Positions 44,347-57,300 of a stretch of 64,000 nucleotides of DNA are shown in pieces. The position numbers and the translations under genes were made by a program. Source of the stretch: Schmidtea polychroa (Eukaryota); the NCBI GenBank assembly GCA_044892525.1, contig CM097885.1:26600001-26664000 (forward strand), written 5' to 3'. The notes below the pieces were generated by a model. That model was not told where the DNA came from and searched no databases. It saw only the letters and a program-made list of their open reading frames with translations. Numbering within the stretch: position 1 is the stretch's first letter; the number at the start of each line of letters is the position of its first letter.

Positions 44347-47300
44347 ATGACAGACGGAATTCCAAATGTAACAGGGCTAACGGACCCACCGGAAACAAGT
44401 AATGTGCACGTCAACATTGGAGAATTCAGAGAGAAATTTCGAGGAGAGCCATTCGATGGAAATATAAACCAGCTGGAAACGTTTATAAAGGAATTCGAAG
44501 TATACATTACGATATGTCACTGGCCAGACATAGTCGTACGAGAACGAATACCCCTATATCTAAAGGGAAGCGCCCAAGACGTATACTTGGAGGCGAAATG
44601 TGATGCAACTAAGTTGAGAACGTGGAAAGAGATCAAGGAATTTTTAATAAAAACATTCGGTACCGAAAAAGAGGGAAATCGAAAAATGTTAGACTTTCTG
44701 CATCGAAAGCAGAAATATAACGAATCCAACGCGCTGTACGCATGCGAATTGAGACGACTAGCACGAGAAGCCTTCGATTCAAATCAACCAGTTCCGGAAG
44801 ACAAAATAATAGCCGTATTCGTAGATGGCATGAAACGAGAGGATATACGAGCAACCTTGGGATGCCGAGCACCAGAGACGCTGGAAGAAGCACTAAAAAT
44901 AGCTAACAAATGTGAAACTTACCTAACACCAATACAAGTAGCAGCAATGACAGCAGCCCCAGCAGCTCCAGCAACAACAGCAACAACCACAAACAACCAA
45001 GTCAATAATGCAAATCCAGTAATGAATCAATTCATCCCAGGATCGCAACAGTTGTTCAAAACTCCACAAACAAGAAACCAAAACAATGGAGGTAATATTC
45101 AAAATTTTACTAATAATTTCAGGAACAACGACATCAACAATCGAACGTGCAACATATGCCAACGACCAGGGCATTGGAGCAATGAATGTTATAAAGCAAG
45201 GATGTGTCAAAAGTGTGGGAGAAGAGGCCACACGGAAAATGTCTGCAGAGGACCCATGATGTCTATGAGCAGAGGAGGAACCAGAACCTGCTACAATTGT
45301 AATCAGCCTGGACACATGGCAAGAGAATGCACGATGAGAACCAAACCAAATCAACCAGGATCAAACAATCCAGTTCAGAACACACAAATCAACCTCATGC
45401 AGGAAATCGAACAATTAAAAGATATGATCCTGCGAATACCGACTAATAACCAACAACAACGAATCAACATGATGCAGAGCACCGAGGAAATCCGGAACCA
45501 ACCAAGTAAGCAACAACAAGATCAGCAACGAGTCGAATGGCAAAGATTACAAAACGAGGAAGCCAGAGAAATTCAAGAAAGATGGAAACAACGGGAAGCG
45601 AATCCCGGAAGAATAAATATGATGAGATTAACAAATAAAGAGGAATCGCACACTGCGGAGCAGTGTGTTAACAACGACGGGAGTGAACCGATAATAAACA
45701 AGGAGATAAAAACGACAAAAGAAGATGAGATTGATCCACGAACAGAATTGAGCAGTGAAGAGAAAATACAATTGATTAAAGAATTTACCAAAGAGGAGAA
45801 AGAAAGGAGACAAAAGAGAGATGAGAGTAAAGACGAACCAAAAAGCAATGAGATAATTACAAAAAATCGAATTCAGAGGGTACTACTACAAAAAATCGAA
45901 GACAGAATCAAAAACGAAAATCCTACATTAACTGAGGAACAAATAAAAGAAAAAGTGAAAGAGCATTGGTTCAGGAAAAATGAGTGGTTTGAAAAGAAGG
46001 AACCACATACCAAAGCTAAAATAAACATGCTGAGACAAATGCGGAGCGATCAGACGGATCAGGAAGATGAGAAAAGTGAGGTGAGTAGCCTGGGAGGCGA
46101 ATTATTTCAGTCAAGTGAGGAAAATAACGAACCGAAAACACCTCCAAACAGTGAAACACCTCAAAGTAGTGAGGAGAGTGAAAATGATGACATGAAATCA
46201 ATGATAGAAAAAGATGAAGAAGAGATATTCGAGGAAATTCTCGACACAGTAACAGAAATAGAGCGAAATGAGAGCTACATCAACGAGTTAACATACAGAA
46301 AATGCTTAAAACTTATAACTCAAGTATACCAGTGTGAAGGAGGTATAATAACGGCAGCATGGAAAGATTTAGCAACAAAATATAAAGAGAAACTAAAGGA
46401 AGCAGGCCCAGATCAATATCAAGTAAGTATTCAACACCCCGAGATTCAGATACAGACTATTGAATTAAAAGGAACAAATACCGATGAACTGTACAACTGG
46501 GTACAGGAAAAAATGGGAACGAGCCATAAAAATAAACAATTATATGTCGATGGTTACAAAGTTAAAATGGGCATACATTTGGTAGATGCGATGATATGGC
46601 CAAACGAAACTAACATCTTAACCTTAGAGAAAACCAGAGATGACGACTCGGTAGCAGAAATGTTCAAGAAAATCCAACAAGTGTTTAACAATGAAGTGGA
46701 ACCAGAATTGGAAAAGATCGAACGAAAAATAATGAAAGAAAATCAAATAATCTTAGTCAAACAAGCTATCGATCAGACAAGGAAATACATTAATAGACTG
46801 AGAGAAAGATGGCCACAACTAATGAAACAATTCGTTAAAGACGTACGAGACACGGAAATCATGAGATTCGAAGACAAACGAGCGACAGAATTGATATCTA
46901 AATACGGAGAATACGAGAGAACCAAATGCGAGCATGAAACGATAAAAATAAAGGTGAAGTTGCCAAATGAAGAGAAACAAATAATAGAAGTTAATCCCGA
47001 TTGCCAAGTTGACGAGTTAGTGCAAATCATAGATCAAGAGATCATCCAAAAAGCTCGAGAAAATAGTGAGGATGGAATGATCGAAGATGTGATAATAATG
47101 TACAACCGGCACATGCTGGAAAGAGGAGACCGAACTGGAATTTACGAACTAGGAATCTGGGAAGATGGAGCCGTCATCAATATAATCGCGATGGATGAAC
47201 CATCTGGTGGGCACAAAAACGCCACGAAAACCGAGCAACAAGTTAAAAGATTCCAATGGGGAATGAGAGCAAAGATGGATCGAATAATAGATATTTATAA

Positions 47301-54372: not shown

Positions 54373-57300
54373 TCGACTAAAAGAACACATGGAGAAAAAT
54401 CGTCACAGATATACGATCGAGAAAGGATGGCTATTGGTAATGGATGGCGACAAACGATTGATGTGTCTACCAGAAAGTAGACGGAAAGAAATTATGATTC
54501 AATACCACGATGGTAAATTGGGCGGACATATGTCAGCCAAGAAAACAGAAGCAAGGCTCAAACAGAAATATTACTGGCCAAATATGAGCGATGACGTGAA
54601 AGAATGGATAAAGAACTGCCTGATATGCGCAACCAGAAAAACAACGGGCAGTAAACTAAAGCCACCATTGAAACCAATGCAGATACCGCCAGAACCGATG
54701 ACAATGATTGCAATGGATGTAGTTGGACCACTACCAGAGACTAACAGTGGAAATGTGTATATATTGGTAATAACTGATTATCTGACTAAGTTCCCTGAAG
54801 CATTTGCGATGCCAGACCAGAAAGCACGAACGGTTGCAAGGATATTAGTGGAAGAGATCTGCTGCAGATATGGAACACCAAAACAAATCTTAACTGACCA
54901 AGGAACTAATTTCATGAGCGAGATAATAAATGAAGTGACAAATTATTTTAGAATTGCCAAATTGAGAACCTCACCATACCACCCGCAAACGAATGGTCAG
55001 ACAGAAAGATTTAACGGCATACTAATAGACATGATGTCCAATTACGTGAGTAAACATCAAAAGGACTGGGATGAATATATTAAGTTGTGTCTAATGGCTT
55101 ATCGAATGTCAATACACTCAGCAACGAAAATGAGTCCGTTTAAACTCATGTATGGAAGGGAATGCAACATGCCGATGGATCTCGAATACCAACCGCCAAT
55201 CTCACAATATATGGAGATAGATGATTATGTGACAAAGTTCAAGGAGAGAATGCAAGAAATATGGAAAACCGCAGGGATGAACATCCGATTCAACCAAGAG
55301 AGTTATAAGGAATTGCATGATAAAAAGAAGAACGTACAAAACCATCAATTTAAAATCGGAGATTGGGTTATTATAGAAACACCCGAATTAATCCCAGGAA
55401 CAGCAAAGAAATTACAACGTAATGGCAGAGGGCCATATGAAGTCATCTATGTAAACGAGAACAACGCTAGAGTGAAGTTGGTTAACAATCCACTAATTAG
55501 ACCCATTTATGTGAATACATGTCGATGCAAAGCAGTAGCGAAAACTGCCACTAAAGACCCAGAAACAAGAAGGATAATCACGAGATCACAAACAAATGCC
55601 ACAACGGAACCAGAAGTAAGCGGTAGATTAACTAGATCACAGACAAGACGAATATTCATGTTGAGAGGAGAAACAAGCAGCAGCGCCCATAAAGGAACTG
55701 AAGCAGAAAGCGAAGCTGACGCAATGGCAAGGAGCCAAGCAACATGGAATATGACAGTAAAAATAGCACGAGAAATTGTACCAGAATGGGCCGATATAAC
55801 CAATAAATACCAAGTATTGGGCAAACTAATGTTAGTAGCAGAAAGATATGCGAAAGGACGAAGATATGCCGAAGGATTACAAATACCGACTCAAATATAT
55901 GAACTAATCCGGAGATTACCAATCATGTTCCTAACAAGTGATTTGAGTAATAACTGGCCAATCCATCATGCAGCGAAAGCAGGACAAGAAAAACGAGCTT
56001 TAGAGATTATACGAATAATGGAAAACTGCAAACAATCAACAAACGTCAAAAACAGTAAAGGAAAAACTCCACTGATGAAAGCCATAGCAATAGGCGCGTC
56101 AAGAGATGTACTCAGAGAATTATTAAGAACGGGATCCACGCTGAAAGAAAAAGACAACAAACAACGAACCGTATTACGTTATGCCGTCAGGTCAAAAAGA
56201 CCTAGTATAGTGAACTTTATCACAGGAAATGCAACAACCGAAGAAGCCGAGGTGTTGGGACAGAGCATTGAACCAATTCTGGAAGCCATCAGAGGAAACT
56301 TAGACAGAACCGCAGCAATATTAATCAAATGGAAACAAAACGAATTAAGAGCGGAAGTAATTGATATAAATCAATTCCAAAACAACGAAAATATCGTACT
56401 AAGAAGCGCCATATACTCAAGACCACCAATGCCAAAAACCATTAAAGCAATATTACAGAGAAATAGAACAGAATTGACAGGTAATTGGTGGAAATGCACA
56501 AAAACACATGCGATGAAAAAGCAACTAGAAATACTAGTGTGGGAATGGCACCGGAAACAACGGAAATATCAAGGAACCAAAGAAGAACGAGAAAGTATCC
56601 ACAACGACAAAAAAGAGATAATTAAAAAATACGAGGAGATGATCAAAGCAGCAAATGTCGAGGACGACATTTTCAGGAAAACCCCGGGTGAGAGGAATGA
56701 CGACGACGACGACGACGAAAGGATGGGGGATAACGATAACAACCCAGAGGAAAACGACAGAGAACAGAATCCGGAAGGCGGAGAAACAACGAGTGATGAT
56801 GAGGAATTGGAAGAAGACGAAGAAGACCAATGTCGAGGTGAAGATCAAGGATTCGACAAAACGGAGAACAAAAAACGAAAGTCCCCACTACATAGCATAG
56901 TGTGTCGAAATCAAATCCAGCCAATCCTACTACAAAGAATATTTATAATATTAACATCCATCTGTTTAACAGAAACAAAAAATATAAGAATCGTAAGAGA
57001 AGCTTCCCAAGAAGGTGAAGCATTTATGATAAAAGTCAGTGATTACGACGGAAATGCCGTCGGAATATGTGTGCAACTAATGGAAGGAACAGGAGTAAGT
57101 TGTGATTTCAGATCGATAACAAAAGGAAAGATTTTTAGCAGCCAAAAAAGAGATCCCAGGCTATGTGGAGATTATGACATCTGTAGAGACATATCAACAG
57201 AGGAAATGGAGCTAGAAAGAGCCAACGAAACCGGAGTACATTTTCAACTCAACATTTTGGAAGAAGGTATCGAAATAGAAGATAAAGGGAGTCGATCAAT

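Follow-up and report, generated by a model that had tools for sequence, protein, structure and literature searches.

We analyzed a 64,000-nucleotide stretch of Schmidtea polychroa DNA (assembly GCA_044892525.1, contig CM097885.1, positions 26,600,001 to 26,664,000 of the forward strand; hereafter the window) that carries a giant retroelement, and we find that a short motif recurs along this element's polyprotein. It is quite likely that the element's own aspartic protease (a retropepsin) recognizes these motifs as its sites and that together they form a processing code; cutting at these sites is our prediction. The motif would be a lineage-specific and unusually uniform form of the sites found in LTR (long terminal repeat) retrotransposons, (R/K/Q)-I-(N/C/F)|(M/L/T)-(M/L/I)-(R/Q), where the bar marks the predicted cut. 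We favor this reading because the positions of the motifs, a junction motif that was trained independently on relatives, the P2/P2' pattern of Ty1, the location of the motifs in linkers, and a model of the protease with one of the sites all agree. To this extent we uphold the original prediction, a note drawn from the DNA letters alone that had assigned the motifs to the element's protease. By its layout, matched to the section on Burro in PMC6431247, the element is a Burro-type giant Ty3/gypsy retroelement. Going by the parts of the cited papers that bear on it, both the element and the type of site are already known; the new part is the extension of the sites to cargo junctions.

The polyprotein is spread over two open reading frames (ORFs), which we handled as two separate translations. 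ORF1 (44038..54372; 3444 amino acids, first Met at 44347) encodes Gag, cargo, Env, the protease (PR), a dUTPase-like domain, reverse transcriptase (RT), and RNase H. ORF2 (54326..58414; 1362 amino acids), which is in another frame in this copy, encodes integrase (IN), ankyrin repeats, and a second membrane protein. The ORFs, the motif sites, and the domains described below are all on the forward (+) strand. The original prediction named nine hexamers, and all nine are encoded where it placed them, eight in ORF1 and one (RIFMLR) in ORF2. We ranked each site among 4800 window positions with a four-residue model that was trained on the pol junctions of 23 distant relatives, without the window; the nine ranks are 1, 7, 10, 10, 12, 13, 16, 21, and 85.

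QINLMQ (45385..45402), 18 amino acids past the last zinc knuckle, is the weakest of the nine (rank 85). RINMMQ (45460..45477) and RINMMR (45610..45627), both of rank 10, lie in a charged spacer (45391-46026) that has no Pfam matches, and KINMLR (46018..46035; rank 7) is at the start of the ubiquitin-like/MATH module. The top-ranked site, RICMMR (48070..48087), is 18 amino acids past the MATH domain and would be cut at IC|MM. TIAVLQ (52111..52128; rank 21; predicted cut IA|VL) is just ahead of PR, and the relatives' motif matches at the same position. QICTMR (52483..52500; rank 13) lies between PR and the dUTPase-like domain, a place where most relatives have no motif, and RICLII (54241..54258; rank 16) is at the RNase H/integrase junction, where relatives have similar motifs. 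RIFMLR (55649..55666; rank 12) is past the C-terminus of integrase and about 100 amino acids before the ankyrin match; it is 40 amino acids beyond the RCK landmark, and the relatives' top motif scores are 19-63 amino acids beyond the same landmark. One likely site, QVAAMT (44935..44952; rank 8), was absent from the original prediction: it directly follows the capsid match and would mark the end of the capsid, with a predicted cut at VA|AM. The idea that the motif marks domain boundaries thus fits five of the eight strict sites and TIAVLQ, but RINMMQ, RINMMR, and KINMLR are in the spacer. We also note a high-scoring IAAV at 47458, 40 amino acids ahead of the MATH domain and without a basic flank, which may be a weaker site.

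From the window sequence alone, the recurrence of the hexamer is real but modest. The strict motif had been listed at eight sites; the recurrence stands, but the pattern [RKQ]I.[MLT][MLI], which was chosen post hoc, has 10 matches. The two extra matches, KIQLIK (45763) and QIQTIE (46447), are ruled out as sites by their ranks (303 and 141). Shuffled polyproteins contain 2.6 matches on average; among 5000 global shuffles a single one reached 10, and the same holds for 5000 local ones. In an unfiltered blind search for recurring hexamers, acidic low-complexity words came out on top, the score of RICMMR (6.0) was reached by 23 of 154 shuffle maxima, and half of the eight neighbors of RICMMR were non-sites. 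With a filter that was set afterwards (at least 4 distinct residues and at most 2 D/E), RICMMR was the top word and its score was reached in 1 of 204 local shuffles; a stricter filter dropped RICMMR itself, and what remained was not significant (102/278). Among all 150 tetrads of the form [IV]xx[ILVM] in the window, the nine sites stand out by better middle residues (p = 1e-6) and by flanks that are more polar (p = 1e-4), and the five gag/cargo sites on their own also have better middle residues (p = 2e-4). Because the codons and the DNA flanks differ from site to site, as judged by eye, recent duplication is an unlikely source of the sites. Finally, it is true that the motif is missing from the glycoprotein ectodomain, as had been pointed out, yet this is uninformative, with just 0.19 matches expected. 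We dropped the argument; the relatives' ectodomains have 18 matches versus 17.0 expected.

The stronger test comes from relatives of the element: we collected 21 long homologs, 150 listed representatives, and 8 loci. Many of these have the Gag-Env-pol layout, and RT identity is 53-59% for the Env-bearing relatives P0001-P0012. Expectation-maximization, run de novo and with our window excluded on the junctions of 23 relatives (64 windows after de-duplication), gave the motif [IV]-[ASLGNC]-[MTAF]-[ILV]. Its log-likelihood was 87.9, whereas the highest value was 60.8 among 30 shuffles and 61.1 among 20 sets of real windows picked at random. (The input was 25 proteins, of which 23 yielded windows; P0004 and P0027 were omitted from training as near-duplicates, and P0013 and P0015-P0021 because they lack an Env match.) Training on the windows after RNase H and after integrase predicts the windows before PR, 31 of 42 of which score above the shuffled median (p = 5e-5). 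In the other direction, the four-residue core of the window's sites carries over weakly to the relatives' pre-PR windows (27/42, p = 0.006) and to those after integrase (11/13, p = 0.01, with seven of these windows overlapping the pre-PR ones).

One close comparison favors the cargo claim. In run X13, a diverged contig end retains RINMMR with 1 synonymous change in 18 bases, and 7 of the next 11 bases differ (this is one site, in 2 contigs of one run). Differences among reads were too few to use: 40 of 1122 are shown, and none of these 40 is in a motif. No shorter homologs of the gag/cargo region were found among the 7999 candidates that were scored, which does not imply that they are absent, and scans of viral contigs with the window's pol and with an Env alignment returned no relative.

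Structure models also fit the protease-site reading. In an AlphaFold2 model of residues 2681-3444 (22 sequences, mean pLDDT of 80), all three of the modelled pol sites are in linkers with pLDDT below 50 between well-predicted domains: this includes TIAVLQ, QICTMR (at a dip at model residues 135-138), and RICLII (in a low-pLDDT stretch, 704-731). When PR was folded without an alignment, pLDDT was 33 and the fold was not usable. We also modelled a complex of two copies of PR with the 32 residues around RICMMR, along with 3 controls. The complex with RICMMR scored 0.72 and the best control scored 0.25; the mark for this score was reached by 51 of 78 solved pairs and 2 of 108 mismatched pairs (for eukaryotes, 39/65 and 2/126). 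At least 77% of contacts are the same between runs, and pLDDT is at least 54 for the partner. In the model, the two copies touch the site with their catalytic loops, one at the Ile and the other at the second Met, which would therefore place the center at I-C|M-M. Taken as a model, it shows how the post-MATH site could fit in the cleft of PR, and in which register, rather than cleavage.

The same register is seen in Ty1, whose natural sites are VPTIN*NVHTS, IHLIA*AVKAV, and TARAH*NVSTS, with mainly Val or Ile at P2 and P2' and hydrophilic residues at P3 and P3' (as given in the relevant part of PMC6952103). Like the sites of Ty1, those in the window have a four-residue core with hydrophobic P2/P2', a P1 that is small or polar, and outer residues that are polar, and are found at the ends of PR, RT, and IN. 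Two traits of LTR-retrotransposon sites are present: hydrophobic P2/P2' with polar flanks and, for the three modelled pol sites, a position in exposed linkers where mature proteins would end. In contrast to those of Ty1, the window's sites are rich in Met at P1'/P2' and basic at P3/P3', and there are about ten of them instead of three, several next to non-retroviral cargo. (Ty1 is a copia element, and the likeness is one of pattern, not of family.) In Ty3, Gag3 is cut into capsid (CA), spacer peptide (SP), and nucleocapsid (NC), and PR frees RT and IN, according to the part of PMC4974528 that describes processing. We found no cleavage map for Burro in the literature that we searched, nor in the section of PMC6431247 on Burro.

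Several results weigh against our reading. None of the 12 relatives P0001-P0012 is enriched in the exact pattern (1-3 matches each versus 1.0-2.3 expected), a six-residue profile built from the window does not work at any of the relatives' three junction classes, and the four-residue core fails after RNase H (7/16). The original prediction took non-conservation between subfamilies as grounds for rejection, and this is what we see for the exact hexamer, because it fails in distant relatives; what is conserved is the looser core at pol junctions and, in the diverged run X13, RINMMR. Training on pre-PR windows alone gave a different and noisy motif that did not transfer (12/22, p = 0.2). The junction windows were defined after the sequences had been seen, and the relatives share ancestry and so are not independent. 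The four-residue model is also loose: the gag/cargo part of the window has 7 matches versus 4.8 by chance, and of the Ty1 cores, just IAAV scores high under the relatives-trained profile (INNV is at the 94th percentile and AHNV is at the 75th). As for the relatives' own gag/cargo regions, they have no excess of the loose motif (38 matches versus 40.1 expected in 17 proteins, one of which was parsed whole by error), and their post-knuckle windows are not significant (10/16, p = 0.14). With no such excess, the relatives alone give no backing for the cargo claim. Regarding the models, another linker, which joins the dUTPase-like domain to RT, lacks a motif of the kind in the original prediction, QICTMR could be a C-terminal strand of the PR dimer, and the complex score was calibrated without peptides, and solved complexes of retropepsins with substrates may account for the pass.

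One alternative, which we consider unlikely, is that only the canonical junctions are cut (the capsid end, the NC end, both sides of PR, the RNase H/integrase junction, and the integrase end), that the copies in the spacer and after MATH either arose by duplication of the NC-end site and have decayed or are look-alikes that stay uncut, and that the cargo stays in long precursors. The lack of a motif excess in the relatives' gag/cargo regions would be as this predicts, and three of the sites are clustered within 75 amino acids after NC, the first two with some codons in common. On the other hand, the DNA flanks of the sites appear unrelated by eye, and the cargo sites are the top scorers, with ranks of 1, 7, 10, and 10. 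Furthermore, X13 keeps RINMMR while its neighbors change, and the post-MATH peptide docks in register in the complex model.

It is quite improbable, in our view, that the motif serves as a short element for binding or structure (for example, a beta-strand that is added to the groove of a MATH/TRAF domain or to another partner) or is the target of a host protease instead of PR. The element does have MATH domains, short peptides are bound by TRAF-C-like domains, and QICTMR is located where an extra C-terminal strand of PR could be. But the motif is exactly at the junctions that proteases of retroelements must cut, and in the relatives, none of which has a MATH match, the core recurs before extra copies of PR and after RNase H. 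Least probable of all, and hardly credible to us, is that the pattern was fitted after the fact to a long protein of biased composition and reflects nothing but chance. The pattern is indeed post hoc, two of the ten matches appear to be due to chance, and the outcome of blind discovery varies with the filter. Chance would not explain why just 1 in 5000 shuffles reaches the count, or 1 in 204 in the filtered blind test, or why a model that was blind to the window puts all but one of the nine sites among the 21 best of 4800 positions.

If the motifs are indeed sites for PR, then processing would most likely proceed as follows. The polyprotein would be threaded through the endoplasmic reticulum at Env, and the hydrophobic leaders suggest that the host's signal peptidase would free the N-terminus of Env and the last membrane protein. 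A cytosolic dimer of PR would cut the cytosolic parts of the polyprotein at about ten sites, at the predicted scissile bonds. The Gag-side products would be capsid, NC (150 amino acids), and three charged spacer peptides of 25, 50, and 136 amino acids. The cargo would yield a 684-amino-acid module with the ubiquitin-like and MATH domains and a stretch of roughly 560 amino acids, up to the Env leader, that includes the Bcl-2-like region and would stay on the membrane leader. Next would come Env with its tail, PR (124 amino acids), and a dUTPase-like-RT-RNase H protein of 586 amino acids, and from ORF2, integrase and an ankyrin module. The original prediction had the cargo domains released as mature proteins. 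Release is predicted for the 684-residue, 560-residue, and ankyrin pieces, but these would be multi-domain modules: MATH and the Bcl-2-like region would not be single products unless weaker sites (e.g., IAAV at 47458) are used.

We tentatively suggest, at somewhat less than even confidence, that Burro is akin to a polyprotein RNA virus. A copy of the protease code would have been fitted to every host-like module that was captured, and a single retropepsin would release anti-apoptotic or signalling effectors at a constant ratio to capsid and Env; in the relatives, duplicated proteases may share the cutting. Under this suggestion, the modules would be the TRAF-type MATH domain with the ubiquitin-like region, the Bcl-2-like region anchored by the Env leader, and the ankyrin repeats on a membrane anchor. 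The principle of processing by a protease is old, and the value of our reading is that it makes the cargo of Burro testable: a polyprotein of roughly 4,700 residues resolves into defined products whose ends are predicted, and whether the cargo interferes with apoptosis and ubiquitin signalling in the host, a question raised in the section of PMC6431247 on Burro, can be addressed directly. It also suggests how a retroelement might take up foreign domains within a single frame and still keep Gag and Pol working.

ORF1 opens with a Ty3-like capsid domain (44449..44922; Pfam Ty3_capsid, E = 1.1e-6, slightly short of the curated cut-off; Retrotrans_gag, E = 4.5e-7), followed by three CCHC zinc knuckles of the nucleocapsid (45148..45330; read from the sequence and matched by zf-CCHC). 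The cargo includes the TRAF-C-like MATH domain (47584..48018; MATH_2, E = 3.4e-29), with weak matches to UBXL/UBX before it and a second ubiquitin-like region after it that we saw by eye only. A candidate Bcl-2-like helical region (49225..49617) is suggested by section 7 of PMC6431247 along with a common GGW motif, and by blastp to P0022 and P0026; Pfam gave no match, and an Atlas structure search returned only unrelated matches of low recognition. The mononegavirus-like fusion glycoprotein (ectodomain and transmembrane helix, 49759..51522) matches Pfam's Monjiviricetes_fusion with E = 1.5e-68 and has its hydrophobic segment at 51424-51522. The retropepsin (52120..52491) has its catalytic DTG at 52195-52203, a Pfam match under the curated cut-off (gag-asp_proteas, E = 8.8e-5), a protease fold in the AlphaFold2 model, and a predicted mature form of 124 amino acids, whose start is at most 1 residue from that of mature HIV-1 PR in a weak alignment (E of about 0.001). 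The dUTPase-like beta domain (52501..52752) probably corresponds to the one in the section of PMC6431247 on Burro; it is seen as strands 142-226 of the model and has no Pfam match. RT and RNase H (53092..54144) are clear from Pfam, and the best Foldseek matches are to the RTs of cauliflower mosaic virus and Ty3. ORF2 contributes the zinc finger and core of integrase (54470..54985; Integrase_H2C2, rve) and the ankyrin repeats (55961..56224; Ank_2, E = 4.4e-9).

This gives the pol order PR-RT-RNase H-IN with a Ty3-like RT, as in Ty3/gypsy (Metaviridae-like) elements. The planarian gypsy-like giants Burro and GYPSM1 have one huge ORF with an in-frame mononegavirus-like Env between gag and pol, according to the section of PMC6431247 on them; the RNA of BURRO1 rises upon RNAi of smedwi-2 (PMC8532177). 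The window shares with them Gag with three knuckles, MATH, candidate ubiquitin-like and Bcl-2-like regions, Env in frame between gag and pol within a giant ORF, PR, a putative dUTPase-like domain, RT, RNase H, IN, ankyrin repeats, and a BIR gene nearby (so that MATH, ankyrin, and BIR cargo are all present, with BIR in the separate ORF at 60673-61851). Two differences from that description are that the ubiquitin-like motif there is between MATH and Bcl-2, whereas the weak match in the window is before MATH, and that the window's copy is split over two frames instead of one ORF. The frame switches at 54326-54372, right after the RNase H/integrase site. The break looks copy- or assembly-specific instead of programmed, because the length of this zone differs between contigs from two public runs.

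ORF2 ends with the second membrane protein (56900-58414), which starts from a hydrophobic leader, contains Cys-spaced repeats, 6 N-glycosylation sequons, and one transmembrane segment, and has no Pfam match; the relatives L002 and L005 likewise finish with leader-plus-membrane modules. According to Pfam, accessory ORFs encode a RING protein upstream of gag (41185-41667) and, downstream, a protein with a TRAF-like zinc finger and a MATH domain (59069-60532) and an IAP-like BIR and RING protein (60673-61851). These are followed by a coiled-coil-like protein (61931-63532). There are thus two MATH domains in the element: one within the polyprotein and one free-standing. Within 36960-40487, a probable 5' LTR of about 3.5 kb contains short ORFs and has TG...CA ends by eye, and after it there is an 18-mer resembling a primer-binding site (40470-40487), which we take to be similar to tRNA-Pro. 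In the 64 kb we found no long direct repeat pair or 3' LTR, and the element seems to extend beyond the end of the window. The flanks are very AT-rich, which is compatible with a Burro or planarian origin but is no proof of it. An unrelated ORF at 24301-25218, with HEAT/PBS-lyase repeats, is probably a host gene.

Relatives from metagenomes that have Env within the polyprotein (P0001-P0012, L002, and L005) share the Gag-Env-pol layout and have the same core at their pol junctions. Unlike the window, they lack the exact hexamer, MATH was not found in them, and many have two or three proteases instead of one. These retropepsin-like domains have intact-looking D[TS]G motifs and are between Env and RT and after integrase of the same ORF; there are three in each of P0002, P0004-P0008, P0023, and L002, and two in each of P0001, P0009, P0014, P0022, P0025, and P0031. 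Among the 12 papers listed in a literature search, none used the phrase "multiple protease domains." Many of these protease copies are preceded by a motif of the cleavage type. In two metagenome relatives, separate downstream ORFs of about 460-500 amino acids begin at L001:12085 and L002:10617; by eye, the latter presumably resembles a DEDD exonuclease. Also, a contig from a viral collection (L007:948-8108) has a single gypsy ORF of 2387 amino acids in which what looks by eye like an envelope protein is in frame after integrase.

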